DNA from: Clostridia bacterium
GTDB lineage: Bacteria > Bacillota > Clostridia > Christensenellales > Aristaeellaceae
Length of the DNA stretch: 64,000 bases
Assembly: GCA_017532155.1 (NCBI GenBank)
Contig: JAFXJP010000048.1
Span: forward strand, 231 to 64,230
Reading direction: 5' to 3'
The notes under the pieces were generated by a model. It saw only the letters and a program-made list of their open reading frames with translations. It made no database searches and was not told the DNA's origin. Made by a program: the position numbers and the translations under genes. This document shows, piece by piece, positions 13,588 to 59,352 of this stretch (position 1 is the first letter of the stretch; the number at the start of each line of letters is the position of its first letter).

Positions 13588-14895
13588 TTATCTGTTTTTG
13601 ATCTGGCGGCGAATATCATCCACCAGCGATGCGAAGGCTTCGGCGGAACGGATGTCCTCAGCTACCTTATCGCAGCCGTGCAGTACGGTGGTGTGATCGC
13701 GGCCGCCCATGGCCTCGCCGATGCGGGACATGCTGGAATCTGTCAATTCGCGGCACAGGAACATGGCCACCTGGCGGGGCGTGGCGATTTCACGCGTGCG
13801 GCGCGGGCCCTTGAGATCGTCAACCGTCACATTATAGTAGGTGGCAACCACGCGCATGACGTCATCGCAGGTGAGATTGCGGGGCTCGTGCTTGGCAAAG
13901 ACTTCGCGCAGCGCTTCCTCAGCCAGGGCGCAGTCGATGGGACGGCCGGTGAGGGAGGAATAGGCGCTCAGGCGCGTGAGGCTGCCTTCCAGCTCGCGGA
14001 TGTTGCTTTCCACATGCTCGGCAATCAGAGAGAGCACGTCGTCGCCGCAGTTGAGCATTTCGATCTGCGCGCGCTTGCGCAGGATGGCGATGCGGGTTTC
14101 AAGGTCGGGACGCTGGATGTCGGCGATCAGGCCCCATTCAAAACGGGAGCGCAGCCTCTCTTCCAGCCGGGCAATCTCGCGCGGCGGACGGTCGGAGGAA
14201 ATGATGATCTGCTTGCCGGCGGTATGCAGCGCATTGAAGGTGTGGAAAAATTCTTCCTGCGTGCTGGTGGTGCCGGCGATGAACTGAATATCGTCGATGA
14301 GCAGCACGTCGGTGGAGCGGTATTTATCGCGGAAAGCGGCGTTCTGGCCTGTCTGGATGGCGGAGATCAATTCGATCATGAACGTTTCGCTGGTCACATA
14401 AGTGACGCGCGCATCGGGCTTTTCGCCGATGATATAGTGACCAATGGCGTGCATCAGATGCGTTTTGCCAAGGCCCACGCCGCCGTAGATGAACAGCGGG
14501 TTGTAGGCGTCGGCCGGCGCTTCGGCAACGGCCAGGCACGCGGCGTGCGCAAAGCGGTTACTCTTGCCGACCACGAAGGAATCAAAGGTATACTTGGGGT
14601 TGAGGAAGGAGGCGACGGGCTTTTTGGCATGCTGGCCGGCCTGATAATCCTCCGCTTCCTTGGGGGAGAGGATTTTGACCTGCAGCGGGCGGGAGGCCGC
14701 TTCGCTCAGCGCGTTGGCGATCAGAATGGAATAGCGCGGCACCACAAACTGATGGTAAAAGTCCGTTACGGCCTTTACCATAAAGGTGTCGCCGTCAAGC
14801 GCCATCGGCTTTAAGGCGGAAGAAATCCAGGTATTATAGTTGACCTCGCTCAGCTCGCTGCGGAGCAGCGCGCAGGCGTTATCCCAAAGCTGCAT
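13588..14895 (-). CDS. dnaA: Chromosomal replication initiator DnaA
   Basis: Walker A GGVGLGKTHLMHAIG, then LLIDDIQF, and the C-terminal DNA-binding signature IATPRQVAMFLCRELT...GGRDHTTVLH. The start is ambiguous: ATG at 14895, or GTG at 14904, which sits 9 nt from GGAGG. Confidence 0.93.
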   Translation of the reverse strand: MQLWDNACALLRSELSEVNYNTWISSALKPMALDGDTFMVKAVTDFYHQFVVPRYSILIANALSEAASRPLQVKILSPKEAEDYQAGQHAKKPVASFLNPKYTFDSFVVGKSNRFAHAACLAVAEAPADAYNPLFIYGGVGLGKTHLMHAIGHYIIGEKPDARVTYVTSETFMIELISAIQTGQNAAFRDKYRSTDVLLIDDIQFIAGTTSTQEEFFHTFNALHTAGKQIIISSDRPPREIARLEERLRSRFEWGLIADIQRPDLETRIAILRKRAQIEMLNCGDDVLSLIAEHVESNIRELEGSLTRLSAYSSLTGRPIDCALAEEALREVFAKHEPRNLTCDDVMRVVATYYNVTVDDLKGPRRTREIATPRQVAMFLCRELTDSSMSRIGEAMGGRDHTTVLHGCDKVAEDIRSAEAFASLVDDIRRQIKNR

Positions 14896-14904
14896 GCTAT
14901 CCAC

Positions 14905-15351
14905 GGAAAAATGCCTCCATTGTACATCGAAATGTATAAAACATAGCGTTTCATACGCTGAAAAGAGCGAAAAAAACAAGCCCACAGGCGGTTGCTTATG
15001 GGCAAGAGAGGCGACGACTTTTGTATCGTAACGCGCTTGCCTGTTCTTTTTGCCCTCTTATCATAGCAGATTCGGTGGATAATTGCAAGAGTTATCCACA
15101 ATTGCCGTATGCGCATGCCATAAAATGCGATTTTTTGTGCTGTATCAATAGATTGTGTCCGGAGGATGAAGCCGACACAAGAAGCATGCTGAGGATGATT
15201 GCAATGTGTATAAATATGCAAAATGTGTGAATATGTTATCTGCGGGAAAATATAAAAATTTTTGCCGCCTTCAATACGGCGTGATTGGTGGACAAAAAGG
15301 GCTTCCTGTGGTATTCTATTATGAGGCTATGCAAAGGAGGCAAAGAGTGTC
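14905..15351. other. Candidate oriC (DnaA-box cluster plus AT-rich tract) upstream of dnaA
   Basis: Perfect TTATCCACA at 15092-15100. TTATCCACC (reverse) at 15074-15082. One-mismatch box TGTGTATAA at 15205-15213. Two-mismatch box at 15287-15295. AT tract AAAATATAAAAATTTTT at 15247-15263. Confidence 0.6.
15074..15100. promoter_or_regulatory. Converging pair of DnaA boxes
   Basis: GGTGGATAA followed 9 bp later by TTATCCACA. Confidence 0.7.
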
Positions 15352-25077: not shown

Positions 25078-25225
25078 AAGTCTCCCTCCTTTTCTGAAAA
25101 CATTATAGCATAATTAGCTGCGGGCGCAAGTGATTTGGTTTCAATTGTCGTATTGAGCGTCTGAATTGACAAATGCATAAAGAGCGGGGATTGGGGCAAT
25201 CCTGCCTAGAAAAAGGAGGATGAAC

Positions 25226-25981
25226 ATGCTCGGATGGTTGAATGTGATCGCCTTTGCAGGCACGGTGGCGGTCAATGCTCTGGCTAACGTGCTGCCCATT
25301 GCAGGGGTGAAGACGGAGGATATATCGCAAAAGTATCAGCATTTGTTTTCGCCGGCGGATTACGCCTTTGCAATCTGGGGTGTGATTTATGCGCTGCTGG
25401 CGGGGTTTGTGTGGTATCAGGCGATGAAAAAGCACCAGGGAATTGCCCAAAGATGCGGGCCGTGGTTTATTGTCAATTGCATTGCCAATGCGCTGTGGAT
25501 GATTCTGTGGCATTATGAATGGCTGGGATTGTCCGTTGCGTGCATGGCGGTGATTGTGCTTTCGCTGGTGATGCTCAATATCCGTCTGGAGAAAGTGAAA
25601 AACACCTGGCAGGAGAAAATATTTATTCAGGGGGGCTTGGGATTGTATCTGGGCTGGGTATGCGTGGCGATGGCGGCCAATGCGGCGTCATTTCTGGTGC
25701 AGACGGGCTTTTCAGGCTTTGGCATTACGCCGGAAATATGGACAATTGCTGTGGCGGTCATGCTGTCGCTGCTGAGCGCGGCGGTGCTGGACAGATTTGA
25801 AAATCCTTTCTTTGGCGCAGCGGTGCTTTGGGGCCTGGCGGGCGTGATGGCGCAGCATCTGATCGGCTATCATATGCGCTATGGCTGGGCGCTGGCTGCC
25901 TGCGCTCTGGCGATGATCATATTGCTGATAAAGATGTGGCAGCTGTTTGGCGCAGGAAAAATGGCGCATGTGCAGGAATGA
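25226..25981 (+). CDS. TspO/MBR-related tryptophan-rich membrane protein (tentative)
   Basis: The second ATG at 25226 is 6 nt after AAGGAGG. Motif FSPADYAFAIWGVIYALL. Polytopic. Confidence 0.55.
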   Translation: MLGWLNVIAFAGTVAVNALANVLPIAGVKTEDISQKYQHLFSPADYAFAIWGVIYALLAGFVWYQAMKKHQGIAQRCGPWFIVNCIANALWMILWHYEWLGLSVACMAVIVLSLVMLNIRLEKVKNTWQEKIFIQGGLGLYLGWVCVAMAANAASFLVQTGFSGFGITPEIWTIAVAVMLSLLSAAVLDRFENPFFGAAVLWGLAGVMAQHLIGYHMRYGWALAACALAMIILLIKMWQLFGAGKMAHVQE

Positions 25982-26024: not shown

Positions 26025-27293
26025 ATGAATCCGTTTTTGATGAAACCACAAAAGCATGAAAAGGAACTGCTGTTGCTGGAGTGGCGCAAGCTTTGGCCCA
26101 AGCCGTATGACAAGCGCACGGTGGATCCCTATACCCGCACGCGCGTGATCCTGATGAATGGCACGGAGTTTGAAAATGTATGGTTTACGCATCAGTTTAA
26201 CCGTCAGACGGACAATAATGAACTCAGGCGTCAGCTGGCGCTGCTTCGCCGCAGCGAGCAACAGCAGCAGAAGCTGATTTCGCATCTGAAGCCGCCGGAG
26301 GAAACGCTGCTTGAGCATACCATCGGTTATGAGCAGCTGGCGGTGGATCTGACGGCGCATCTGGCCAAGCGCGTTTGTGATCAGGGGCTTAAAAATGCGC
26401 TGGATTTTGCGCTGCTGGAGGACTTTGACCATCTGTACCGCTATGCCGATCTGCTGGACATGGAATGCGGCGTGAAGGCAGAGCAGCTGGTAGGCCATTA
26501 TACCGAAATCATGCCTGGCCGGCCGACGATTGCGCATCATCGCCATCCCTTTGACAGCGTGCGCTTTGCGATGGAAAAGCCCTGCCCGCCGGTGTTTGAT
26601 GTGCTGGCAGCCAATATCATCACGGCGGCAGAACAGCAGACCATGAATTATTATATGAATGTATCGGCAGCCTATCCTGATGCGCGCGGCAAAAAGCTGT
26701 ATCAGGAAATCGGCATGGTGGAGGAGCAGCACGTCACGCATTACGGCAGCCTGCTGGATCCGCATATGACGTGGCTGGAAAATCTTTTGTGGCATCAGTA
26801 TGCAGAGTGTTATCTGTACTACAGCTGTCATGCGCTGGAGACGGATGCAGGCATCCGCGAGGTGTGGGGCTTTATGCTGGAGCAGGAGATTGCGCATCTG
26901 CACATGGTATGCGATATGCTCAAAAAGTACGAGGGCAAGGAATGGCAGCAGGTGATTTCCGAGGGCGAATTTCCTGCGCCCCTGCGTCTGGAAAGCAATA
27001 TTCCCTATATTCGCGGCGTATTGCAAAATACAGTGGAAAACACCGCCTGCCGCGAAAACTATGTGCCGGTTTGCACGCTGCCGGAAAACGCGGATTTCTT
27101 TATCTATCAGAACATCGTCAACCGTAATACGGAAGATGTGCTGAGCCACCGCGTGATTGAGGAGTATATTGCCAGGAACGGCAAGGATTACCGCTATGAG
27201 ATTGCGGAGAATCCCATTCCGGCGCTGCGCGACAGGAAAAATGACAATACTACGGTCAGCCGCACCTATCAGTGTGAAATGGTGCACAACTAA
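26025..27293 (+). CDS. Ferritin-like (putative di-iron carboxylate) protein of unknown function
   Basis: Spaced E/H motifs: LEDFDH, AAEQQT, VEEQHVTH and LEQEIAHLH. 422 aa with no signal peptide. Confidence 0.55.
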   Translation: MNPFLMKPQKHEKELLLLEWRKLWPKPYDKRTVDPYTRTRVILMNGTEFENVWFTHQFNRQTDNNELRRQLALLRRSEQQQQKLISHLKPPEETLLEHTIGYEQLAVDLTAHLAKRVCDQGLKNALDFALLEDFDHLYRYADLLDMECGVKAEQLVGHYTEIMPGRPTIAHHRHPFDSVRFAMEKPCPPVFDVLAANIITAAEQQTMNYYMNVSAAYPDARGKKLYQEIGMVEEQHVTHYGSLLDPHMTWLENLLWHQYAECYLYYSCHALETDAGIREVWGFMLEQEIAHLHMVCDMLKKYEGKEWQQVISEGEFPAPLRLESNIPYIRGVLQNTVENTACRENYVPVCTLPENADFFIYQNIVNRNTEDVLSHRVIEEYIARNGKDYRYEIAENPIPALRDRKNDNTTVSRTYQCEMVHN

Positions 27294-27390
27294 AAAGAAA
27301 AACGCATCCGAAAGGGTGCGTTTTTCTTGCATCATGCGGCACGTGGCAGTATAATAGATTTACAATTTATAGCAAAAGAAGGTGCTTTTT

Positions 27391-28536
27391 ATGCAGTATA
27401 AGCCGCTTGGAAATACGGGCATTCTTGTCAGCGAAATTGGCCTTGGCTGCGAGGGCTTCAATAACAAAGACGAAAAGGAAACGCAGGAGCTGTTTGATTA
27501 TGCCATTTCGCAGGGTGTGAACTGCATGGATCTGTACAGCCCCAAGCCTGATTTGCACCGGCGCATTGCCAGGGCGCTCAAGGGCCGCAGGGATAAATTT
27601 GTCCTGCAAGCGCATCTGTGCACGCTGTGGGACGGCGATCAGTACAAGGCCACGCGCAATCTGCAGGAAGTAAAGGATAACTTTGCCCTGATGCTGAAAA
27701 ATCTGGAGACGGATTATGTGGACGTGGGCATGATCCATTATGTGGATTCGCTGGAGCTGTGGCAGAAAATCCGCGATGAGGGCATCCTCGATTATGCAAA
27801 GGAACAGAAGGCGGCGGGGCATATCCGGCACATTGGCCTGAGCAGTCATAATCCCATTGTGGCGCTGGAGGCAATCAGGGAGGAAGCTGTGGAAGTGCTG
27901 ATGTTCTCTGTCAATCCCTGCTATGACTTGCTGCCCGGCGATGAGGACTGCGAAACGCTGTGGGCAGATGAAAGCTATGAAAAGCAGCTGCTCAACCTCG
28001 ACCCCAAACGCGAGGAATTGTATGAAACCTGCCAGCGGCTGGGCGTTGGCATCACGGTGATGAAGGCCTTTGGCGGCGGCGATCTGCTGACAGATAATTC
28101 TCCGGCCGGAAAGGCGCTCACGGTCAGCCAGTGCATCCATTATGCGCTGACGCGCCCGGCAGTCAGCACGGTGCTTTCGGGCGTGCACAGCATGGAGCAG
28201 CTCAAGGCTTCGCTGGCATATGAGACGGCTACGGAAGCCGAAAAGGATTATGCGCAGGTATTTGCCACCTTCCCCAGGATCAGCTGGGAGGGGCATTGTA
28301 TGTACTGCGGCCATTGCGCGCCGTGCGTGAAGGGGATATCGGTAGCGGATGTGACCAAATTTTTGAGCCTGTGCCGGGCGCAGGGCGAGGTGCCGGAGAC
28401 TGTGCGCGAGCATTACGCGGCGCTCAGGGCGCATGCGGGCGATTGCATCGGCTGCGGCGCATGCGAAAAGCGCTGCCCCTTCCATGTGCAGATCATTGAG
28501 AATATGCGCGCGGCAAAAGAAACCTTTGGCTATTGA
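27391..28536 (+). CDS. Aldo/keto reductase fused to a C-terminal 4Fe-4S cluster-binding module
   Basis: MQYKPLGNTGILVSEIGLGC is a typical AKR N-terminus. C-terminal CMYCGHCAPC and CIGCGACEKRCP. Confidence 0.85.
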   Translation: MQYKPLGNTGILVSEIGLGCEGFNNKDEKETQELFDYAISQGVNCMDLYSPKPDLHRRIARALKGRRDKFVLQAHLCTLWDGDQYKATRNLQEVKDNFALMLKNLETDYVDVGMIHYVDSLELWQKIRDEGILDYAKEQKAAGHIRHIGLSSHNPIVALEAIREEAVEVLMFSVNPCYDLLPGDEDCETLWADESYEKQLLNLDPKREELYETCQRLGVGITVMKAFGGGDLLTDNSPAGKALTVSQCIHYALTRPAVSTVLSGVHSMEQLKASLAYETATEAEKDYAQVFATFPRISWEGHCMYCGHCAPCVKGISVADVTKFLSLCRAQGEVPETVREHYAALRAHAGDCIGCGACEKRCPFHVQIIENMRAAKETFGY

Positions 28537-28537
28537 T

Positions 28538-28573
28538 AAAAAAACAGAGCAGATAAAGCTGCTCTGTTTTTTT
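28538..28573. terminator. Bidirectional terminator
   Basis: A7-CAGAGCAG / CTGCTCTG-T7. Confidence 0.85.
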
Positions 28574-28811
28574 ATGCGTTTGTTTTTTGAATCAGGCGCC
28601 GCACCCATAAACGAATGAGGAAAAAGACGCCGGCGATCAACAGGGTAAGCAGTCCATTGACATAAATGGCTGTGTACCATGGCGCAGAATGGAGGGCATA
28701 CAGCAGCGGGCGCGCATGATAATCGATGCACAGATACAGGCTGTGGCCGACATAGGCGCCAAGGAAGGCAAAAATGACGGCGGATAAAAGATGCTGGATT
28801 CTGCAGAGCAT
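28572..28811 (-). CDS. Small two-TM membrane protein; last gene of the CotH/two-component operon
   Basis: GGAGG lies 6 nt upstream of the ATG at 28811. 79 aa. Confidence 0.6.
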   Translation of the reverse strand: MLCRIQHLLSAVIFAFLGAYVGHSLYLCIDYHARPLLYALHSAPWYTAIYVNGLLTLLIAGVFFLIRLWVRRLIQKTNA

Positions 28812-28822
28812 AGCGTACCTCC

Positions 28823-29380
28823 TTACGGGATGCTTTGCCAGTCTGGCGCGAGCATCAGATAACGGACAAAATCAAAAGGCAGGGCGGCGGTATCGGCAAT
28901 CAGCTGAATGCTTTCATCCGTAAGGATTTTGCGGATGGACGCAATCTGTGCCGGGCCGTCCGTTTCGCTTTGCGGGTCAAGGAACAATAGCAGCACCTTG
29001 CGGGCGTCGGCGACAGAGCTGTCCAGCACGGGAGAGGAAAGAATATCCGCCCGCAGACAGTTGCCCAGCGCAATGTAATACAGATGCTTGGCTGTATCAT
29101 ATTCTACGCCGAACTCGGCACAAAAGTGCTCAAAATCGCTCTCCTGGGCAGCGCACAGCAGCGGAAGCACGGCGGAGAGTACGCGCAGATTGAGCGCGTC
29201 GTCCAGATCGGGCGTGCTGAAGTGGCCATAAAAGATCATTTGCAGCAATTGACAGCCCAGACGATTTTCTTTACAAACGGTGGATGCGGAAGGATCATCC
29301 GGCCAGTAGGGGGATTGCGCGCAGGCGGCGGCAGAAAAAAGCAGCAGCGCGCAGATCAGACATAGTATTTTTTTAAGCAT
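28823..29380 (-). CDS. Secreted or lipoprotein of unknown function, paralogous to the N-terminal domain of the 33048..33911 product
   Basis: Signal peptide MLKKILCLICALLLFSAAACA. An ungapped 78-residue stretch shares about 25 identities with the TPD-repeat protein (LRA.I, LFL, IR, LP..FV, DW). Confidence 0.75.
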   Translation of the reverse strand: MLKKILCLICALLLFSAAACAQSPYWPDDPSASTVCKENRLGCQLLQMIFYGHFSTPDLDDALNLRVLSAVLPLLCAAQESDFEHFCAEFGVEYDTAKHLYYIALGNCLRADILSSPVLDSSVADARKVLLLFLDPQSETDGPAQIASIRKILTDESIQLIADTAALPFDFVRYLMLAPDWQSIP

Positions 29381-30738
29381 TAGGCATCCTCCTTCGGTTG
29401 GGATGGGAAATGCAGGATAAAGCGGGTACCACAGCCTTCTTCGCTTTGCACGTCGATGGAAGCCTCATAGCGCGTGCACAGCGCCTTGACGATGGAAAGG
29501 CCAAGTCCTGTGCCGCCCTGTCCCATGCCGCGGCTTTCATCCACGCGGTAGAACTGTTCAAACAGATGCGGCAGATGCTTTGCGGCAATGCCGATGCCGT
29601 TATCCTCGACGACCAGGGTGTTTTCTGTCAGGGAAAGCTGAACAAAGCCGTTCTCGCGACCGTATTTGATGGCGTTGCTCATCAGATTGTACAGAATTTC
29701 CCACAGATCTTTTTCTGCGGCGAAAAGCTGCATATCGCCCTGAATGCGCAGCTCGATATGCTTTTGCGCAGCCTGTGGCTGCAGGGCGCTGATGATTTCT
29801 TCTGCAAGGAGGCGAACCTGGACGAGCTCTTTTTCAGAGGCGTTGTCTGATTCAGCGTGGCTGAGATGCAGGATATCCTCAATCACCTGCAGCATGCGCT
29901 GACACTCATTGCGGATGGCGGAAAGGCACAGCGCTGTTTCCTCGGGAGAATCGGCCATGCCTTCGTCCAGCATTTCAGCAAAGCCCATGATGGAGGTGAG
30001 CGGACTGCGCAGCTCATGCGAGGCATGGGCGACGAAATTGCGGCGCATATTGAGCGTGCGGTTGACTTCGTCCAGATCATTGTGCAGCCGGGCTGCGAGA
30101 TAAGCGATATGATCCAGCGCGGGCTTGAACTCGGGGAAGCGCGCGGAGATTTGCTGCTCGTTGCCTTCCAGCAGGCTGCGCACGTCATCCATCTGGTGTA
30201 CGAGGGTGAGGGCGAATTTTTTTAGCTGACGGCGCTGCAGGAAATACAAAATGAAGAACAGCGCGGACAGACCAAGCGCGTAGAGAAGCAGCAAATGGAT
30301 GATCTCATATAGCGGATAGGCCAGACGCAGGATCAGATTGGGGGACAAGCGTGTAGCTACATACATCGTCAGGGAAGTTTTTGTATCCGAAATGTGCAGA
30401 CTTTCGCCTGTGCCGCTTGACAGCACCTGCTGCACCTCCGGCCTGTTGGCATGGTTTTCAAGCTGCAGGGTGGAAAACTCGCTGTCTGCCAGCACAAGGC
30501 CGTGATCCATCAGAATGGTGACGCGCAGCGGCGGAGAAAGGGAAGCGATTTCTTCTGCCAGCGATTGCAGCGTATCGTTGGAATCAAATATCCATTCCTT
30601 GGCGGCATGCGACATGATATGCAGATTATGGCGTGTATCGCTCACGCGCATACCAACCATCAGTGAAATGACAAGCGACGCCATCAGCATGGTGATGAGA
30701 ACGCCCAGCCAGTAGATGCGGTGCAGCTTTTTTTTCAT
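29380..30738 (-). CDS. Sensor histidine kinase (PhoR-like; two TM segments flanking an extracytoplasmic domain)
   Basis: H-box HASHELRSPLTSI, N-box NLMSNAIKYG and G-box GTGLGLSIV. Confidence 0.9.
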   Translation of the reverse strand: MKKKLHRIYWLGVLITMLMASLVISLMVGMRVSDTRHNLHIMSHAAKEWIFDSNDTLQSLAEEIASLSPPLRVTILMDHGLVLADSEFSTLQLENHANRPEVQQVLSSGTGESLHISDTKTSLTMYVATRLSPNLILRLAYPLYEIIHLLLLYALGLSALFFILYFLQRRQLKKFALTLVHQMDDVRSLLEGNEQQISARFPEFKPALDHIAYLAARLHNDLDEVNRTLNMRRNFVAHASHELRSPLTSIMGFAEMLDEGMADSPEETALCLSAIRNECQRMLQVIEDILHLSHAESDNASEKELVQVRLLAEEIISALQPQAAQKHIELRIQGDMQLFAAEKDLWEILYNLMSNAIKYGRENGFVQLSLTENTLVVEDNGIGIAAKHLPHLFEQFYRVDESRGMGQGGTGLGLSIVKALCTRYEASIDVQSEEGCGTRFILHFPSQPKEDA

Positions 30739-31426
30739 GTGTTTTCACCTGCGATCAGGCGATAGCCCGTGCCGCGCACGGTCTGTATAAAGCGGGGAGA
30801 GGCAGCGTCATCGCCGATTTTGATGCGCAGTGTTTTGATATGCGAATCTACCGTGCGGGAGGGGTCGTCATCGCCCGGATAGCCCCATACATGATGCAAA
30901 AGCTGCCCGCGCGTGACGGTAACGCCAGGGCTGCGCGCGAGGAAGCACAGCATGTCAAATTCTTTTTGCGTCAAATCAATACGCGTGCCGGCCACGTAGG
31001 TTTCGCGGCTGTCGGGCAGCAGCGTCAGATCTCCCACGATAATTTTTCGGCTTCAGTTGGCATGCGGCGCAGCGCGGTGCGGATGCGCGCCTGCAATTCA
31101 CGCACGCTGAAGGGCTTGGTGATATAATCCTCGGCGCCCAGATCAAGCCCATGCACCTTGTCGTGTTCGGCCGCACGGGCGGAGAGGATGATAACAGGAA
31201 TTTGCTGCGTGCTTTTCCGGTCTTTCCATTCGCGCAGCACTTCAAAGCCATTTTTGGCGCGCAGCATCAGATCCAGCAGCATCAGATCGGGCGTGCTCTT
31301 ACGCAGTTCTTTTTCCATTTCGACAGCATCGAGCATATGAAACGCTGTATGTCCGTCCTTTTCGACAGCCATTTTGATCAGCAGTGCAATTTGCGGGTCA
31401 TCTTCCACAATCCAGATGTTGGCCAT
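30735..31426 (-). pseudogene. OmpR/PhoB-family response regulator split by a 1-nt frameshift
   Basis: The receiver domain (31025..31426) and the winged-helix domain (30735..31037) are in different frames. Adding one A to the A5 run (T5 at 31043-31047 on the plus strand) gives the continuous sequence ...PTEAEKIIVGDLTLLPDSRE... Confidence 0.8.
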
Positions 31427-31429
31427 GCT

Positions 31430-32983
31430 TTATTGCTCCTTTGTAACAAGAGAGTTGCACCATGCGTCCATATGCCGCAGCGCATGGGAAAAATAGGTAA
31501 GGATTTCTTCATAGGTGAGGGTATTGCCTTCGCCGCGGCCGCATTCCGGCCAGCGCACATGATCGCGGGCACGGGCGGCATAAATCGTCTGATCCAGCGA
31601 CTGTGCAAGCGAAGAGAGATTAGCGTATGAAAGGGCGCTTTCCCGGAGCGTTTGCCAGCGCTGCGCAATGGCTTGCAAAACATGCGGCTGGCCTTTCTGC
31701 ACCAGTATTTCAAAATATGCGTCCATGACGGTTCCGCCTACATAGTACTCAGTATAATTATATTCTGCAAGCTCTTTTTGATAAACGTCGCCAAGCGTAT
31801 AGTTTAAGTCCCAGGGAAGCTTATACAAAAGCGTTTGCCCGGGCAGAGAGACCGCATTCAGAAACTGATTTTTGAAATGGCTGTCGTGCGCTTGCGTAAA
31901 GGCGACAAACAAGCCGTAATCGATGGCGTTATTCAGGCTGACAGAGATGCTTGCATCCAGCGTTTCATCTGACAGCGCAGCCATATAGGCAGCGGCAGGA
32001 CGATAAAGGAGCGCGGTATCGCCGCGGAAGTCATCTCCGTTTTCTACTTCAAAAGCCATGCAGGCAGTACGATCCGGACAGGAAAGAAGCTCCTCTACAG
32101 TGGGACGCTGATTGGTGCGCACTTTATAGAGAACGTCGGTTTTTTTGCTGCCGTTCACCTGCTTGATATCCACACGCTCCTGCAGACCGTACAGCCCATG
32201 ATAGGCGCCGTTGAAAAAGACCTCAACATAACGGATACGCGAGCTTTGTGCATGGACGCCGCTGCTGTTCATCATATCCCACAGCAGATAGGCCAGCGGC
32301 TCGCGCAGCTTGGAGGCGTCGGTGTACATGGGATTGAGAATCCAGTCATCGTCTGTTCTCAGCCCTGCCAGGGAAACATGGCGATTGTCGCCAAAGCCGT
32401 CGACAAATTGCAGCCGGTAGCTTTGCTTGGGGTAAATCTTGCTGGTGTTGCCGCGCAGATTGATTTCGGCTGACAGCTTTTGCGCGCTCAGGCTGCCAGG
32501 CTGCGCTTCGTAATACAATACGGTGCAGTCTTCATCTTCTTCTCCGGGCAGTGCTTTGTCAGCTGTTGTGATGGAAAGGATGGGCAGCGCGCTGAATAAA
32601 AGCGTGGCGGAATCGGTCTGCTCACCATTGGTACCATAGAGGGTATAACCGCGCGAGCGGGCAAGCGCTTCCGCTTTATCACAGTGGGCGTCAGGGAGCA
32701 GATAATAGGAATAGCCTGCTTTGCGCACGAGGGTGAGCGAGCCGTCAAACGTGCTGCTTTGGGCGCTCTGGCTGATAAAATAGGTATCGGAGGCAGCGTC
32801 ATAGGGAAGCGGAAGCCCGTCAAGCAGCAGCTCTACCGTGCCGGTTGGCGCGGGGAGGCGACGGGCCTCTTCCTGCGTGATGACGGGAAGATCATTCAGC
32901 CCGCCAATCATGGGCAAAGAATCCGCAGATGCTGTGCCATGAAACAGCAGGCAAAACAGCAGGGTGAAAAATACAGCTTTCAT
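31430..32983 (-). CDS. Secreted CotH-family kinase-like protein
   Basis: Signal peptide MKAVFFTLLFCLLFHGTASA. CotH core NLRGNTSKIYPKQSYRLQF...WILNPMYTDASKLREPLAY...FFNGAYHGLYGLQERVD. Confidence 0.85.
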   Translation of the reverse strand: MKAVFFTLLFCLLFHGTASADSLPMIGGLNDLPVITQEEARRLPAPTGTVELLLDGLPLPYDAASDTYFISQSAQSSTFDGSLTLVRKAGYSYYLLPDAHCDKAEALARSRGYTLYGTNGEQTDSATLLFSALPILSITTADKALPGEEDEDCTVLYYEAQPGSLSAQKLSAEINLRGNTSKIYPKQSYRLQFVDGFGDNRHVSLAGLRTDDDWILNPMYTDASKLREPLAYLLWDMMNSSGVHAQSSRIRYVEVFFNGAYHGLYGLQERVDIKQVNGSKKTDVLYKVRTNQRPTVEELLSCPDRTACMAFEVENGDDFRGDTALLYRPAAAYMAALSDETLDASISVSLNNAIDYGLFVAFTQAHDSHFKNQFLNAVSLPGQTLLYKLPWDLNYTLGDVYQKELAEYNYTEYYVGGTVMDAYFEILVQKGQPHVLQAIAQRWQTLRESALSYANLSSLAQSLDQTIYAARARDHVRWPECGRGEGNTLTYEEILTYFSHALRHMDAWCNSLVTKEQ

Positions 32984-33008
32984 GCAGCCTCCGATGATAG
33001 GAAAATAT

Positions 33009-33030
33009 GCCGCGGGATATACCCCGCGGC
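33009..33030 (-). terminator. Intra-operon hairpin (possible partial terminator or attenuator) between the TPD-repeat gene and CotH
   Basis: Stem GCCGCGGG / CCCGCGGC (8 bp), followed on the minus strand by ATATTTT. Confidence 0.45.
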
Positions 33031-33047
33031 AGGAGAAGAAAGGAAGA

Positions 33048-33275
33048 TCAGGTGTTGTCGGGGGTGTTCACGTCGGGAGTATTATCGGGGGTGTTATCAG
33101 GAGTGTTCACGTCGGGGGTGTTGTCAGGCGTTTTCGCATCAGGCGTGTTGTCGGGCGTATTCGTATAGGAAACATTGGGCTTGGCGGTGGGGGTGACTAC
33201 GGAAGTGTAATCCGGCGTATTGTCAGGCGTGTTGTCCTTCGTCAGGTCGGGGGTGTTATCAGGGGTATCACCGTA
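33048..33275 (-). repeat. Coding tandem repeat (12 TPD units, mostly NTPD/NTPDV)
   Basis: Read from the translation ...DTPDNTPDLTKDNTPDNTPDY...NTPDNTPDAKTPDNTPDVNTPDNTPDNTPDVNTPDNT. Confidence 0.85.
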
Positions 33276-33911
33276 GCTCCACGCATAGTTGGCTTCGGCC
33301 GCCCAGGCGTCGTCGTTCAGATAATCGGTGTCATCCCAGTCGTCATCCATGATCATGAACTCTACAAAGGAGAGGGGCAGATCGTAATTGGAGGCGATGG
33401 TTTGCGCATGTTCCTTGGTCATGCTGGCGCGAATGGCATCGCGGGCAATGTCGGAGGTGTTCTGGCCATCGTTGTACAGGAAAAGAGAGAGGATCAGCTG
33501 AAGGTCGCGGTACTGAGCTTCCGAGGCGGGATTGACCATGATCTCGGCGCGCAGGACATTGGCCAGAGACTGGAAGTAAGTGTTGCGAACCTTTTCGACA
33601 GGCACATTGTTTTCGCCGGCATACAGGGCGATGTCAACGCTGGTGACGTCAGAGAGGCCCTTGAGAGCGGGCGCCAGATCGGCGGCAACCTGCTGGTCGG
33701 TGATGGGCTTTACATACATGCCGGCCATTGCTTCGGTGAGGTATTCGGCGCTGGTTTTGTTATCCACATAAGCGGTGTCGGACGGGGTGAGGGATTGATT
33801 GGTCAGCTTGTTGAAGGCGTCCAGCGCGCTGCTGGCGTTTGTTTTGTCGGCCAAGGCCATGCTGGTCAGCGCAAGGGTGAGGATGAGGGTGAAGATCAAA
33901 AACTTTTTCAT
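33048..33911 (-). CDS. Secreted protein with a C-terminal acidic TPD(N) tandem-repeat tail
   Basis: Trimmed from ORF 33048..34184 to the ATG at 33911 after GGAGCC. Signal peptide MKKFLIFTLILTLALTSMALA. The last ~73 residues contain 12 TPD units. Confidence 0.8.
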   Translation of the reverse strand: MKKFLIFTLILTLALTSMALADKTNASSALDAFNKLTNQSLTPSDTAYVDNKTSAEYLTEAMAGMYVKPITDQQVAADLAPALKGLSDVTSVDIALYAGENNVPVEKVRNTYFQSLANVLRAEIMVNPASEAQYRDLQLILSLFLYNDGQNTSDIARDAIRASMTKEHAQTIASNYDLPLSFVEFMIMDDDWDDTDYLNDDAWAAEANYAWSYGDTPDNTPDLTKDNTPDNTPDYTSVVTPTAKPNVSYTNTPDNTPDAKTPDNTPDVNTPDNTPDNTPDVNTPDNT

Positions 33912-34100
33912 GTAGGGCTCCTTCTCCCGCTGATGCGGGTTGTTCTCTTTTACGGTTTGGATTATAGCGGATTGCCATTTGGATGGGAATGGTTTTTGAG
34001 GAAATCTCACACAGATTTCACATTGGAATTTTCTGTATAGTATATACCCGCTGACAGAAGGATGAAACGGAACTTTTTCTTTCAGTTGGAAAGAAATGAA

Positions 34101-34129
34101 TTGCGTATCGATATGGAAGGTGTTATAAT
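34101..34129 (+). promoter_or_regulatory. Candidate promoter of the ABC exporter pair
   Basis: TTGCGT, a 17-nt spacer, then TGtTATAAT with the hexamer at 34124-34129. Confidence 0.5.
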
Positions 34130-34170
34130 ATGTACTTGTACGATTTTTGATACGAAAGGAAGATGCGGCC

Positions 34171-35952
34171 TTGATATTCGGCAAGTATATTAACGGGTAT
34201 TATAAGAAATATGCCCTCCGTCTTTTGATCGGCTTGCTGGCGCTGGGGATGGTGGACTATCTGCAGCTGGTGATTCCCAACCTTTACCAGATGGTCATCA
34301 ACGGCGTGAATGCCGGCGAGGTGGTCAAGAACGGCCAGGTATATGCATTTGATATGGATTTCCTGCTGGATCATATCTGCATGCCAATGGTGGGCATCAT
34401 CATTGCGATGGTTTTTGGACGCTTTTTGTGGCGCGTGTGCATTTTCGGCGCCGGCATCAATATGGAAAGCGACATGCGCAACAGCATGTTTGACCATTGC
34501 AAGGATCTGTCGCATCAGTATTATCAGGTGAACAAGGTAGGCAACATGATGAGCCTGTTCACCAATGACCTGGAGACGGTGCAGGAGTGCTTCGCACATG
34601 GCTTCCTGATGTTTTTTGACGCGCTGTTCCTGGGCCTTTTGTCTGTTGTAAAGATGTTCAGGATGGATCCGCTGCTGTGCGGTCTTTCGCTGATCCCCAT
34701 GGCGTTTTTGCTGGCGGCGGCGACGATCATCGGCCGCTACATGATGAAAAAGTGGGATATCCGCCAGGCGGCGTTTTCGAAATTGTCTGACTTTTCGCAG
34801 GAGAGCTTTTCCGGCATTGCGGTGATCAAGGCCTTTGTCAAAGAGGGCAAGGAGCTGATGGCCTTTCGGAAACTGAGCCAGGAAAATGAAAAGGCGAACG
34901 TGGATTACACGCGCTCGGCCGTCATGCTGCGCATTGTGGTAACGCTGTTTGTGGAGTCGGTCATCTGCGTAATTCTCGGCTACGGCGGCTATCTGGTGCA
35001 TAAAGGCACTTTCAACGCCGGTCAGCTGATGGAATTTATCGGCTACTTCAATGCCGTTGTCTGGCCCATCATGGCAGTGTCTGAGCTGATTGATATGTCC
35101 TCCCGCGGCAAGGCGTCGCTGGTGCGTATCGGCGAACTGATGGATGCCAAGCAGGATGTGCGCGACGATGAAGATGTAAAGCCGCTTGAAAATGTGCGCG
35201 GCGATATTTCCTTCCGCAATCTGTCTTTCTGCTATCCGGACGGCGAGTTTGACGCGCTGCATGATATCACCTTTGATATCAAGGCGGGCGAAAATATTGG
35301 TCTTGTGGGCAAGACGGGCTCGGGCAAGACGACGCTGGTGGATCTGATCCTGCGCACGTACAATGTGCCTGACGGTACGGTGTTCATCGATGGATACGAT
35401 GTGAACGATGTGCCCATCCACGATGTGCGCGCAGCCTGCGCCTATGTGCCGCAGGATAACTTCCTCTTCAGCGATACCATTGCCAGCAATATCGCCTTTG
35501 GCGTGGATGCGTACGACAGCGACGATATTGAAGAGGCGGCTGATCTGGCGGACGTGGACAGCAATATCCGCGAATTTGCCGACGGCTATCAGACCTTCAT
35601 GGGCGAGAGAGGCGTGACGGTATCCGGCGGCCAGAAGCAGCGCATTTCGATTGCCCGCGCGCTGATGAAGGATGCGCCCATCCTGATTCTGGATGACTCG
35701 GTATCCGCCGTTGATACCAAGACGGAAAAGCGCATCCTTGAAAATCTGCGCAAGACGCGTCAGGGACGCACGACCATTCTGATTGCGCACCGCATTTCCA
35801 CCATCGAAAAGATGGACAAGATCCTCTTTATTGATGACGGTCGTCTGGTGGCGATGGGCCCGCATGACGAGCTATATGCCAATTGCGAGGATTACCGCAA
35901 GATGGTCGATCTGCAAAAGCTGGAGGAAGAGGGGGTAGAGCACAATGCGTAA
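34171..35952 (+). CDS. ABC exporter half-transporter (TMD-NBD fusion), subunit 1
   Basis: Walker A GKTGSGKTT, signature VSGGQKQR, Walker B ILILDD. The start is uncertain: TTG at 34171 is 8 nt after GAAAGGAAG, and the ORF opens at 34147. Confidence 0.88.
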   Translation: MIFGKYINGYYKKYALRLLIGLLALGMVDYLQLVIPNLYQMVINGVNAGEVVKNGQVYAFDMDFLLDHICMPMVGIIIAMVFGRFLWRVCIFGAGINMESDMRNSMFDHCKDLSHQYYQVNKVGNMMSLFTNDLETVQECFAHGFLMFFDALFLGLLSVVKMFRMDPLLCGLSLIPMAFLLAAATIIGRYMMKKWDIRQAAFSKLSDFSQESFSGIAVIKAFVKEGKELMAFRKLSQENEKANVDYTRSAVMLRIVVTLFVESVICVILGYGGYLVHKGTFNAGQLMEFIGYFNAVVWPIMAVSELIDMSSRGKASLVRIGELMDAKQDVRDDEDVKPLENVRGDISFRNLSFCYPDGEFDALHDITFDIKAGENIGLVGKTGSGKTTLVDLILRTYNVPDGTVFIDGYDVNDVPIHDVRAACAYVPQDNFLFSDTIASNIAFGVDAYDSDDIEEAADLADVDSNIREFADGYQTFMGERGVTVSGGQKQRISIARALMKDAPILILDDSVSAVDTKTEKRILENLRKTRQGRTTILIAHRISTIEKMDKILFIDDGRLVAMGPHDELYANCEDYRKMVDLQKLEEEGVEHNA

Positions 35953-37831
35953 TTACCTGCCTGTCCTCATCGTCGGCGCCATCATCGGTACCTTCGCTAC
36001 AATTTTCTTCCTTGCGTATCTGAAGATCCGCAAGCAGAAGGAAGCCATCGGCTTTGACCGCAATATGTCGGATGGCGAGATTATCCGCCGTCTGGCTGCC
36101 TACGTGAAGCCCTACTGGAAGAATTTCCTGGTTGTGCTTTGCATTATGCTCCTGTCGATTTCCTATGATCTGCTCTCGCCCATGATCGTGGGCCGCATTG
36201 AGGAAATGATCAAGGGCGACTTTGAAATGAGCGCGCTGCTGCGCGGCGTAATGGTATATGCCGGCGTGCTGCTCATCTCGGTGACGGGCACCTATTTCCA
36301 GTCCATCATCCTGCAAAAGACGGGCCAGAAGATATTGTCCACCGTGCGTCAGGATGTGTTCAATCACATTGAAAGCCTTTCTCATGAGCAGCTGAACCAG
36401 ATTCCTGTGGGCAAGCTGGTAACCCGCGTGACCAATGACACCAACGCGCTGTCGATGACCTTTACAAACGTTCTGGTGCAGATGGTCAAGAATGCCTTTG
36501 TCATTGCGGGCGTGCTGGTGGCGATGCTGCTGCTCAATTACCAGCTGACGCTGATGGTGCTCTGCTTTGTGCCCTTCGTTGTGCTGTTCACCTTCATCTT
36601 CCGCAAGTTTGCGCGCAAGGTGTACCGCCGCGTGAAGGACTGCACCACGGATATCAATACCTATCTTTCCGAAAACCTGTCCGGCATCAAAATCACGCAG
36701 GTGTTCAACCGCGAAGAGCGCAAGATGCAGGAATTTAAGGAAAAGAGCGATGCGCTCAAGCGCGCCAAGAAGAACCAGACGTTTGTGTTCGGTATCTTCC
36801 GCCCGATGATTTACATGCTCAATATTTCCTCGGTTATGTGCCTGCTGTACCTGGGCGGCAAGGGATATATTGAGAATACCACCTTCATGGGACAGGCGCT
36901 CACCAGCGGTACGCTGGTATCCTTCTACATGTACATTTCGCGCTTCTACAATCCGATCCAGACGCTGGCTGAGCAGTTTAACGCCTTGCAGGCGGCCTTT
37001 GCTTCGGCGGAGAAGATCTTCTCTATCCTTGATATGAAGCCCGTTGTGGTGGATGAAGAAGACGCTGTTGAACTGGATGAGATCAAGGGCGAAATCGAAT
37101 TCAAGGACGTATGGTTTGCTTACAAGGAAGGCGAATGGGTGCTCAAGGGCGTTTCCTTCCATGTGGAGCCCAGGCAGACGGTCGCTTTTGTGGGATCGAC
37201 GGGCTCTGGTAAATCCACCATTCTGTCGCTGATTTGCCGCAACTACGATATTCAGAAGGGCCAGATCCTCATCGACGGCATAGACATCAAAAAGATCAAG
37301 ATTTCCTCTCTGCGCCGTCACTTTGGTCAGATGCTGCAGGATGTGTTCCTCTTCTCGGGTACGATCCGCTCCAATATCGTGCTGTCTGAGGACAAATGGA
37401 CGGATGAAGAAATCCAGGCTGCATGTCATTATGTAAACGCTGATTCCTTCATTAACCGTCTGGAAGACGGCCTGGATGAAGTGGTGCGTGAGCGCGGAAA
37501 CAATTTCTCCGCCGGCCAGCGCCAGCTTTTGTCCTTTGCCCGTACAATCATCCACAAGCCTTCGGTGATGATTCTGGATGAGGCGACGGCCAACATCGAT
37601 ACCGAAACCGAACTGCTGATTCAGGATTCTCTTGAAAAGATGAAGAACATCGGCACGATGCTGATTGTGGCGCACCGTCTGTCGACGATCCAGCATGCGG
37701 ACAATATCATTCTTTTGTCGCAGGGCAAGATCATCGAGCAGGGAACGCATCAGGAATTGCTGCACCTCAAGGGACGGTATCATCAGCTGTACACGCTGCA
37801 GTTCCACAAAGAACAGCTGCGCGTAAAATAA
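35945..37831 (+). CDS. ABC exporter half-transporter (TMD-NBD fusion), subunit 2
   Basis: Walker A GSTGSGKST, signature FSAGQRQL, Walker B MILDEA. An 8-nt overlap with subunit 1 suggests a heterodimer. Confidence 0.9.
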   Translation: MRNYLPVLIVGAIIGTFATIFFLAYLKIRKQKEAIGFDRNMSDGEIIRRLAAYVKPYWKNFLVVLCIMLLSISYDLLSPMIVGRIEEMIKGDFEMSALLRGVMVYAGVLLISVTGTYFQSIILQKTGQKILSTVRQDVFNHIESLSHEQLNQIPVGKLVTRVTNDTNALSMTFTNVLVQMVKNAFVIAGVLVAMLLLNYQLTLMVLCFVPFVVLFTFIFRKFARKVYRRVKDCTTDINTYLSENLSGIKITQVFNREERKMQEFKEKSDALKRAKKNQTFVFGIFRPMIYMLNISSVMCLLYLGGKGYIENTTFMGQALTSGTLVSFYMYISRFYNPIQTLAEQFNALQAAFASAEKIFSILDMKPVVVDEEDAVELDEIKGEIEFKDVWFAYKEGEWVLKGVSFHVEPRQTVAFVGSTGSGKSTILSLICRNYDIQKGQILIDGIDIKKIKISSLRRHFGQMLQDVFLFSGTIRSNIVLSEDKWTDEEIQAACHYVNADSFINRLEDGLDEVVRERGNNFSAGQRQLLSFARTIIHKPSVMILDEATANIDTETELLIQDSLEKMKNIGTMLIVAHRLSTIQHADNIILLSQGKIIEQGTHQELLHLKGRYHQLYTLQFHKEQLRVK

Positions 37832-37841
37832 GTCAAAATAG

Positions 37842-37871
37842 CCGGAGCGGTATAACGCCGCTTCGGTTTTT
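37842..37871 (+). terminator. Rho-independent terminator after the ABC exporter pair
   Basis: Stem CCGGAGCGG / CCGCTTCGG (one G-U pair), then T5. Confidence 0.75.
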
Positions 37872-37873
37872 CG

Positions 37874-37902
37874 TTGACAGAAAATAGGAAAAAGGCTATA
37901 AT
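37874..37902 (+). promoter_or_regulatory. Consensus sigma-A promoter of galK-galT
   Basis: TTGACA at 37874-37879, a 17-nt spacer, TATAAT at 37897-37902. Confidence 0.7.
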
Positions 37903-37956
37903 AAACATAATTATGTACGTTCAGTGCAACATGGCATTGCACGGAGAGGGGAAAAT

Positions 37957-59275: not shown

Positions 59276-59352
59276 GCTAGCGTAAACTAGTAAAGTGGGT
59301 GTATAAAATACGCCTGATTGCCAAAAATGGTTTTTATAAGGAGGCAAAAACG

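Follow-up and report, generated by a model that had tools for sequence, protein, structure and literature searches.

A conserved gene cluster around an exported CotH-family kinase

We analyzed a cluster of six genes located in a 64-kb stretch of a Clostridia bacterium genome (GenBank assembly GCA_017532155.1, contig JAFXJP010000048.1, positions 231 to 64,230 of the forward strand; this whole stretch of 64,000 nucleotides is referred to as the window, and coordinates are counted from its first letter). The cluster consists of closely spaced open reading frames (ORFs) on the minus strand, running from 33911 to 28572, with a good Shine-Dalgarno sequence at every start. The genes encode, in order, a secreted protein with a tandem-repeat tail (g1), a secreted atypical kinase of the CotH family, an OmpR/PhoB-type response regulator (RR), a sensor histidine kinase (HK), a short secreted paralog of the g1 product (g5), and a small membrane protein (g6). 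Judged from sequence comparison, this arrangement is real, conserved and undescribed, and it includes a new secreted protein family; the mechanism that we propose for it is derived from gene context. The genes, and the terminator that closes the cluster, are as follows.

33048..33911, minus strand: g1, secreted protein, 287 amino acids (aa) (ORF and ribosome-binding site)
31430..32983, minus strand: CotH-family atypical kinase, secreted, 517 aa (Pfam, profile comparison, AlphaFold2 (AF2) and Foldseek)
30735..31426, minus strand: OmpR/PhoB-type response regulator gene, frameshifted, 692 nt
29380..30738, minus strand: sensor histidine kinase HK, 452 aa (Pfam and hydropathy)
28823..29380, minus strand: g5, secreted short g1 paralog, 185 aa, signal peptide and helical domain only, tail-less
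28572..28811, minus strand: g6, 79-aa protein with two transmembrane (TM) segments (hydropathy), a lineage-specific add-on
28536..28575, no strand assigned: bidirectional intrinsic terminator, a 17-pair stem flanked by A and T runs, closing both the cluster and the convergent aldo/keto reductase gene

A first-pass annotation, made by a model from the sequence without database searches, had placed these genes at minus-strand coordinates that match the ORF calls, its sole error being the treatment of the RR gene as one frame. The gaps and overlaps that it listed between all six genes were correct throughout: spacers of 64 nt between g1 and cotH, 3 nt between cotH and the RR gene, and 11 nt between g5 and g6, and overlaps of 4 nt (ATGA) between the RR and HK genes and 1 nt (TAATG) between the HK gene and g5. 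Pfam searches on the products, which it had recommended, matched CotH (PF08757), Response_reg and Trans_reg_C, and HisKA and HATPase_c. Its description of a six-gene operon holds in part: the cluster is tight and conserved, but a conserved terminator-like hairpin parts g1 from the other five genes, and g6 lies outside the core. Because this hairpin follows g1, a single six-gene transcript is, on the sequence, not established. GC content is unremarkable, and syntenic housekeeping genes flank the cassette. Neither Rfam models nor tRNAs were found when the window was scanned for them, so that the cassette has no riboswitch or known leader.

The CotH-family kinase

The 517-aa product comprises the following predicted elements.

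aa 1-20: signal peptide
aa ~25-170: beta-rich N-terminal domain (about 145 residues)
31502-32464, minus strand: CotH domain, aa 174-494
31883-31885, minus strand: predicted catalytic Asp367
aa 372: catalytic-loop Asn372
31808-31810, minus strand: metal-binding Asp392

The match to the Pfam CotH family (PF08757) scores 112.7 bits against a cut-off of 23.8 (E=3.3e-32) and spans model positions 1-311 of 322. A single-sequence phmmer search against the Protein Data Bank (PDB) returned nothing, and a family profile was needed to reach a structure: built from 29 homologs, it matches Bacillus cereus CotH, 5JD9 (E=2.9e-6), and in this alignment the cassette motifs HDSHFKN and PWDLN fall on FDGFVHN and PWDYD of 5JD9, with RGNTS..K.SY also aligned. 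The AF2 model (predicted local distance difference test score, pLDDT, 91.2) shows the beta-rich domain preceding the kinase domain. In a Foldseek search with this model, the best matches were 5jd9/5jda (E=9e-16, probability 1.00, TM-score 0.74 on the target), at a sequence identity to the B. cereus structure of only about 15% in the Foldseek alignment, and the runners-up were PI3-kinase catalytic subunits. D367 and N372 are invariant among the 29 homologs and D392 is at least 90% conserved; in the profile alignment, D367 and D392 are the counterparts of D228 and D251 of Bacillus subtilis CotH, both of which are required for activity, their mutation inactivating the kinase (PMC7821199).

The identification of this protein as CotH in the first-pass annotation is thus borne out by the Pfam match, by a predicted fold closest to 5JD9 and by the presence of the catalytic Asp/Asn/Asp, and the lack of a CotH kinase fold, which it had named as a ground for refutation, is contradicted by the AF2 and Foldseek results. 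The signal peptide that it reported is likewise recognizable, as an N-terminal hydrophobic signal-like segment ending ASA/D. By sequence, predicted fold and catalytic residues, we consider the protein a genuine member of the CotH family. The spore-coat CotH in the strict sense, cytoplasmic and with its gene clustered with cotB and cotG, is not orthologous to it: the cassette protein carries the signal-like segment and its neighbors have no Pfam or NCBIfam match. Kinase length varies at the strain level, the conspecific contig L085 having an in-frame 12-nt deletion in cotH (window 31971-31982) and a product of 513 instead of 517 aa (numbers beginning with L designate the loci compared).

A new family of secreted helical proteins

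The g1 product is divided into three parts.

33849-33911, minus strand: signal peptide, aa 1-21
33336-33833, minus strand: all-helical domain, aa ~27-192
33051-33335, minus strand: acidic Trp/Asp linker and TPDN tandem-repeat tail, aa 193-287

Like CotH, the g1 and g5 products begin with Sec-like N-termini, in which a basic residue is followed by hydrophobic residues and then by an AxA-type site. We considered g5 as a lipoprotein and rejected this assignment, given that its homologs do not conserve a Cys close to the cleavage site and several of them have AxA sites without a Cys. The proposed paralogy of g1 and g5 is well supported: BLASTP aligns them over 154 aa at 28% identity with two small gaps (E=9e-15), and a single hidden Markov model (HMM) recovers two length classes, of ~175-205 aa and ~270-470 aa, to which g5 and g1, respectively, belong. 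Both proteins combine a signal peptide with a ~165-aa all-helical domain that has the conserved core LLLFL...IR...LP..F. Neither has a Pfam or NCBIfam match. The AF2 model of g5 is an eight-helix bundle (pLDDT 90), and a Foldseek search of the PDB with this model gave no match (best E=2.2, TM-score <0.31); as modeled, the helical domain appears novel relative to the PDB, Pfam and NCBIfam. When 1.84 billion representative proteins were searched exhaustively with the HMM, only 145 clusters were retrieved. The homologs that we collected number 37 for g1 and 13 for g5.

The two classes differ beyond the domain. The short, g5-type proteins have no tail and conserve the Cys36/Cys43 pair of g5. In the g1-type proteins, the domain is followed by a Trp/Asp-rich stretch, DDDWDDDDW.NDDDW, in many homologs by a PG_binding_1 domain (PF01471), and then by the tail, which always consists of acidic low-complexity tandem repeats, for example, NTPD, DTPDTPD, SPDYNSPATPDYN or YDDTDDDD. 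The tail of the window g1 contains 12 [ST]P[DE] motifs in 99 residues and is composed of 23% D+E and 22% S+T; across 20 homologs, these fractions range over 21-41% D+E and 12-30% S+T, with up to 29 [ST]P[DE] motifs. At the DNA level, tandem repeats lie inside g1 at 33051-33163, and the g1 product of a 99%-identical strain has 291 rather than 287 aa, a difference of one four-residue repeat.

Conservation and separability of the cassette

The window CotH has about 100 close relatives. We compared 27 related loci, 24 of them from one genome per species and three fetched by exact protein, with a set of 55 outgroup loci encoding more distant CotH proteins (25-33% identity). The cassette occurs in uncultured Clostridia of gut and rumen, among them Candidatus Pullichristensenella and Candidatus Limiplasma. 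A g1-type gene lies just 5' of cotH in every related locus with upstream sequence, and the order g1-CotH-RR-HK is found in 22 of the 27, at CotH identities down to 39%, so that the gene order, whose absence from all related genomes would have spoken against the arrangement, is in fact widely kept. In 14 of these 22 loci, g5 follows the HK gene; it is absent from L003 and L016, and six contigs end too early. None of the 55 outgroup loci has a g1/g5 gene detectable by HMM or an adjacent g1-CotH-RR-HK arrangement, and among the compared loci the g1/g5 HMM matched in cassette loci only. This neighborhood survey, another of the checks that the first-pass annotation had called for, indicates that the packing of CotH with an OmpR-type two-component system and a secreted paralog family is conserved, not accidental, and synteny across the related loci excludes chance clustering. 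A literature search also agreed with the earlier remark that no described module of this kind is known, in that it found no CotH kinase packed with a two-component system and the g1/g5 family.

The last gene, g6, has no Pfam or NCBIfam match, and its homologs are limited to the conspecific contigs, L001 (64% identity) and L004 (38%). We rejected it as a core member of the cassette, with no comparable ORF 3' of g5 in 12 other loci.

The nearest sister species (L001, L002 and L004, with 67-70% CotH identity) keep g1-cotH and have lost RR-HK-g5, and L010 consists of g1-cotH-g5 without the sensor system. Conversely, L089 (253-5531) encodes, after an RR-HK pair (HK 37% identical), a 256-aa distant g5-like protein and no CotH, and L090 apparently does likewise; L090-L093 are short contigs of distant family members with little context. 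The flanks of L089 encode a membrane-anchored protein of 175 aa and two secreted proteins that have tails rich in Gln, Asn and Gly and look, by eye, ferritin-like or DUF2202-like; the module may exist here in an older or alternative form. The best reading of these distributions is a conserved cell-envelope module of two separable parts, an effector pair, g1 and CotH, and a control pair, RR and HK, usually accompanied by g5.

Some loci depart from this picture in other ways. The cassette of L025 (8777-12131) is decayed: g1 is frameshifted, the CotH match ends at about residue 372, and a single ORF joins an HK fragment to a g5-like sequence bearing an acidic tail. In two cases (L006 and L007, L005 and L009), two contigs of one metagenome-assembled genome each carry a full cassette with near-identical proteins, which reflects either a duplicated cassette or two strains binned together.

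The two-component system and a broken regulator gene

The HK has TM segments at aa 7-33 and 143-168 around a ~110-aa extracytoplasmic loop, followed by HisKA (aa 231-297, 5.7e-20) and HATPase_c (aa 342-447, 2e-26) domains, the composition of a membrane-anchored sensor. Comparison of the sensor loop with PDB sequences gave chance hits only. The best NCBIfam models for the HK are PhoR and PnpS, below their cut-offs. In the equivalog test with the PhoR/PhoB models TIGR02966 and TIGR02154, which score best, the HK scores 231 bits versus 334, and the two halves of the regulator score 136 and 60 bits against a cut-off of 296. On these scores, the sensor system is a PhoR/PhoB-like relative, not an ortholog.

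The regulator gene is interrupted in the window.

31025-31426, minus strand: receiver ORF, 133 aa (Pfam Response_reg, 5e-24), with a TGA stop at 31025-31027
30735-31037, minus strand: winged-helix ORF, 100 aa, in another frame (Pfam Trans_reg_C, 6e-26)
31043..31047, minus strand: A5 homopolymer, site of a one-base deletion, A6 in conspecific contigs

The first-pass annotation had taken 31426-30735 as a single open frame; with 692 nt, this span is not divisible by 3 and holds two ORFs in different frames. Its description of the cassette as self-contained accordingly does not apply to the window as sequenced. Alignment to the 98%-identical L083 locates the difference to the A5 run, and L085, L086 and L087 differ from the window in the same manner; insertion of one A into this run restores a 230-aa OmpR-type protein. 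All five conspecific contigs that cover the site have A6. A receiver and a winged helix are joined in an intact 230-aa regulator in L083, L084, L085 and L087, and L086 contains the 3' part only.

The deletion may be real, in which case this strain's cassette would be regulatorily dead or decaying, with the DNA-binding domain of the regulator removed by an A6 to A5 mutation, and induction would fail in the sequenced strain. This is a serious possibility, although we lean somewhat against it. The deletion is the only indel in a 21.4-kb alignment to L084, which is 99.91% identical; the assembly is therefore not generally error-prone, and we rejected a general homopolymer sequencing error on this ground. 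Loss or decay also has precedents, in the closest relatives that have no RR-HK-g5 at all (L001, L002 and L004) and in the decayed cassette of L025. However, A6 in every conspecific contig covering the site, the intact state of all the remaining cassette genes, and the fact that a single homopolymer miscall is a common assembly error speak against a real mutation.

Signals upstream and downstream of g1

Three features flank g1.

34006..34021, minus strand: direct repeat GTGAA-N6-GTGAG with 11-bp periodicity, candidate regulator binding site
33961..33989, minus strand: sigma-70-type g1 promoter, with TTCCCA at 33984-33989, a 17-nt spacer and TATAAT at 33961-33966 (10 of 12 positions)
33008..33031, minus strand: GC-rich hairpin, then UAUUUUCC, between g1 and cotH, candidate partial terminator/attenuator

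The full repeat upstream of g1 reads TGTGAAA-TCTG-TGTGAGA (34005-34022), and no further box occurs in the window when up to two mismatches are allowed. The consensus GTGAR-N6-GTGAR has 22 sites in 1.36 Mb of fetched loci, about 19 of them upstream of g1 on the coding strand; the window and 15 other cassette loci have it 5' of g1 in the orientation of that gene. In the window and most of these loci, the -10 hexamer is 39-40 nt 3' of the second half-site, the exceptions being L003 (36 nt) and L017 (49 nt). The hexamer is an exact TATAAT at 10 of the 16 sites and has one or two mismatches at five, and the surrounding DNA is otherwise unalignable. The box is absent from L001 and L004, which have lost the sensor system, and kept in L002 and L010, though neither has an adjacent one; it was sought and not found in the distant RR-HK-g5-like loci L089-L093, whose DNA-binding domains are only 46% identical. 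In L018, at least four tandem ~60-nt units (…AAAATCGAGAA.TTCAAAAAACGCATGACATTCC..CAGA.AAAGTCATGCG…) occupy ~7600-8050, between the candidate box (7553) and the g1 start.

OmpR/PhoB regulators usually have operators made of direct repeats spaced by one helical turn. Since the repeats upstream of g1 are of this type, we infer that the cassette regulator would activate the g1 promoter from a candidate site at about -67 to -52.

The hairpin that the first-pass annotation had noted in the 64-nt gap between g1 and cotH was recovered in a terminator scan, with a 10-bp stem including 8 GC pairs (dG -23.3 kcal/mol, z = -3.4). Similar GC-rich hairpins occur right after the g1 stop in at least 10 other loci (L001, L004, L006, L008, L010-L013, L015 and L016). 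This placement is consistent with strong g1 expression and the continuation of only some transcripts into cotH-RR-HK-g5, which would amount to autoregulation. In the minimum-energy fold of 32984-33047 (minus strand), UCUCC just 5' of the hairpin pairs with the cotH Shine-Dalgarno GGAG(G), and according to this predicted fold, read-through transcripts might also be translationally damped.

A proposed mechanism and its alternatives

Our preferred reading, which we hold tentatively and at slightly less than even confidence, is that the sensor system controls a secreted kinase and a wall-associated repeat protein that is the likely substrate of this kinase. The membrane HK would detect an extracytoplasmic cue, possibly with g5 as an accessory, and phosphorylate the regulator, which would then bind the 11-bp-periodic GTGAR-N6-GTGAR repeat centered near -60 of the g1 promoter. 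As a result, g1 would be made in bulk, with the hairpin letting a fraction of transcripts into cotH-RR-HK-g5 and so providing autoregulation. Outside the cell, CotH would phosphorylate Thr/Ser residues of the g1 repeat tail, yielding a polyanionic wall-associated protein. The tail is the candidate substrate because the B. subtilis CotH polyphosphorylates the Ser-rich repeats of its neighbors, and the [S/T]-x-acidic spacing recalls Fam20C substrates. Regulator-promoter binding, hairpin read-through, the kinase-substrate relation and the phosphate donor are the steps that we infer here.

Several observations weigh against this reading. A kinase exported by the Sec route requires a phosphate donor outside the cell, for which the cassette has no gene. 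The known CotH substrates are basic Ser/Lys/Arg repeats, whereas the g1 tails are acidic Thr-Pro-Asp repeats; the g1 homologs of L006, L008 and L011 have Asp-rich tails without any [ST]P[DE], and the tail is absent from g5, which is hence unfit as a substrate of the same kind. The parts of the cassette do not appear to be strictly interdependent, because g1-CotH persists without the sensor system, both in the sister species and, together with g5, in L010, and RR-HK-g5-like genes occur without CotH in L089 and apparently L090. On the regulatory side, the regulator gene is broken in the window, the promoter motif could belong to another regulator, and the T-run after the hairpin is short (UAUUUU), which makes the predicted strength of termination uncertain. 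Moreover, the mechanism as a whole is an extrapolation from gene context.

An alternative that we regard as rather unlikely, while giving it appreciable weight, retains the cassette as a functional unit in which g1 and g5 are not substrates. The helical domain would bind a ligand, or scaffold, inhibit or position CotH; CotH would target another surface protein, a glycan or a teichoic-acid-like polymer, or would be mainly an assembly factor; and the acidic tails would bind cations or the wall. Consistent with this possibility, the part of the family that is conserved in sequence is the helical domain and not the tail, tails vary widely and some are free of Ser/Thr-Pro-Asp motifs, and g5 is tail-less yet as conserved as g1. 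The distant g5-like proteins that accompany RR-HK without CotH suggest a sensing or accessory role, and some kinases of the Fam20 family phosphorylate sugars rather than proteins. Arguing the other way, g1 is directly 5' of CotH wherever sequence reaches, even in sensor-less loci, and a Ser/Thr-rich disordered repeat tail beside a CotH kinase matches the only characterized CotH system.

A more elaborate version of the substrate reading, which we think improbable and offer as speculation, makes the cassette a bacterial counterpart of the animal secretory phosphoprotein system. Exported CotH would polyphosphorylate the peptidoglycan-bound g1 tail and form a casein- or phosphophoryn-like polyanionic layer, and the two-component system would read this layer via g5 and feed back on the g1 promoter.

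Finally, a sporulation device, in which the kinase would pattern an outer spore layer and g1 and g5 would be spore-surface or cortex-associated proteins, is suggested by the sole characterized bacterial CotH being a spore-coat kinase, by a peptidoglycan-binding domain that could bind cortex, and by a SpoIIGA-like gene directly 3' of g5 in L015, but is very improbable given the Sec-type signal peptides of g1, CotH and g5 (coat proteins are assembled in the mother-cell cytoplasm), control by a membrane sensor kinase, a g1 promoter with a vegetative-type TATAAT and an activator-type direct repeat and no sigma-E/sigma-K pattern, and the lack of sporulation genes near the cassette in the window, L001, L003 and L084. 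The SpoIIGA-like membrane protease gene of L015 (14074-14862; N-terminus ...FLINFWMDFLSLLLTA...) was recognized by eye only, and its carrier is probably a spore-former.

Kinases of the CotH family occur widely among bacteria and fungi, many of them in exported form, with substrates and a role established only for the Bacillus spore coat. For a CotH acting outside the cell, the cassette provides three testable items: the product of the adjacent g1 gene, with its Thr/Ser-Pro-Asp repeats, as a candidate substrate; a candidate regulator, for which GTGAR-N6-GTGAR is the putative operator; and a compact conserved unit that might be transferred to a tractable host. Independently of the kinase, g1 and g5 constitute a new secreted family whose confidently predicted helical fold has no Pfam or PDB relative. 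If extracellular phosphorylation proves true, the source of phosphate outside the Gram-positive cell becomes an addressable question, to which the linkage of outgroup CotH genes with a VTC (polyphosphate) gene hints at an answer; should CotH turn out not to act on g1, the cassette would be no more than an ordinary conserved operon of the envelope-stress type in uncultured bacteria.

Other genes in the window

A second CotH gene occupies 6196-8199 (minus strand) and encodes a 667-aa protein with a signal peptide and lamin-tail (LTD), CHB_HEX_C_1/Fn3_assoc and CotH (E=4e-33) domains; it is very divergent, matching the cassette CotH only at E=0.002. Thus, 25 kb of this genome encode at least two exported CotH kinases. 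Directly 3' of this gene, 4773-6068 (minus strand) encodes a type I phosphodiesterase/nucleotide pyrophosphatase (PF01663, E=6e-45) that has no evident signal peptide, its domain beginning at residue 5; it may be linked to the supply of nucleotides for the kinase.

The dnaA gene (Bac_DnaA, DnaA_N and Bac_DnaA_C domains) is located at 13588-14985 (minus strand), which places the window near the origin of chromosome replication; over its length, cumulative GC skew increases monotonically, without a switch. Two conserved plus-strand genes, at 26025-27293 (422 aa) and 25220-25981 (253 aa), have no Pfam match, and the 253-aa product looks like a multi-pass membrane protein. These two genes, the aldo/keto reductase gene and a gene for a DUF6199 protein adjoin the cassette in L001 and L084-L086 as well. 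At 59299-60639 (plus strand), a 446-aa ORF has an extensin-like, Pro-rich low-complexity match of 54 bits, below the Pfam cut-off of 105, and is possibly another repeat-rich surface protein. Long ORFs (350-700 aa) lie antisense to real genes at 27367-28731 (minus), 32964-34040 (plus), 34123-35865 (minus), 35828-37942 (minus) and elsewhere; they result from the ~55% GC composition and are misleading for length-based gene calls.

Comparison with known systems

The closest characterized arrangement is that of B. subtilis, in which cotH lies between cotB and cotG and the kinase polyphosphorylates the Ser-rich tandem repeats of their products (PMC7821199). Shared with the cassette are a CotH-fold kinase gene beside genes for disordered Ser/Thr-containing tandem-repeat proteins and the retention of the catalytic Asp. 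Unlike in B. subtilis, the cassette kinase and its partners have signal peptides and would be extracytoplasmic rather than confined to the mother-cell cytoplasm, the repeats are acidic (Thr-Pro-Asp) rather than basic (Ser-Lys-Arg), and control apparently lies with a two-component system, not with sporulation sigma factors. The partners are, in addition, mutual paralogs sharing a helical domain, and are set apart from CotB and CotG by their lack of a Pfam or NCBIfam match, not by direct comparison.

Exported CotH domains are known outside the spore coat, in cellulosomal dockerin-CotH proteins, LTD-CotH proteins and Sfz6 of Zetaproteobacteria, with roles that are still open (PMC12484212, PMC8250860). 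The second CotH protein of the window (LTD-Fn3-CotH, 6196-8199) is of this kind. Those multidomain surface proteins are targeted by their fused domains, whereas the cassette kinase has only the beta-rich N-terminal domain, with its partners encoded by separate genes and a dedicated sensor.

The CotH-VTC-DUF4956 loci, such as that of Allofournierella massiliensis (L074), resemble the cassette in being compact conserved clusters of Clostridia, and their CotH is the nearest outgroup (25-33%); the arrangement is also listed for Clostridium perfringens NELoc (PMC2879425). In L074 (9908-13002) and 16 other outgroup loci, cotH is followed by genes for VTC-domain and DUF4956 proteins, giving 17 of 55 by tblastn with the L074 proteins, and the same queries found VTC and DUF4956 in no cassette locus, nor in the window. 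These loci differ from the cassette in their partners, a polyphosphate-polymerase-like VTC protein and a DUF4956 membrane protein, with no g1 or g5. A polyphosphate-polymerase-like partner beside an exported kinase might bear on the phosphate-donor problem.

Among eukaryotic proteins, Fam20C is a secreted atypical kinase, with a fold related to that of CotH, that acts in the Golgi lumen with imported ATP on acidic, disordered, repeat-rich S-x-E substrates. CotH and Fam20C are distantly related (PMC7821199). The [S/T]-P-D motifs of the g1 tails have the S-x-E spacing, a likeness that we would treat as a lead only.

The control half of the cassette is reminiscent of WalRK-YycHI, MtrAB-LpqB and CseABC, in which the operon continues, after the genes for an OmpR-type regulator and a sensor kinase, with one for a secreted or anchored protein that modulates this kinase. 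The g5 product differs from these accessory proteins in having no sequence or fold similarity to them and in surviving without a sensor system in L010, but its gene is translationally coupled to that of the HK, and the distant g5-like genes also follow RR-HK pairs.

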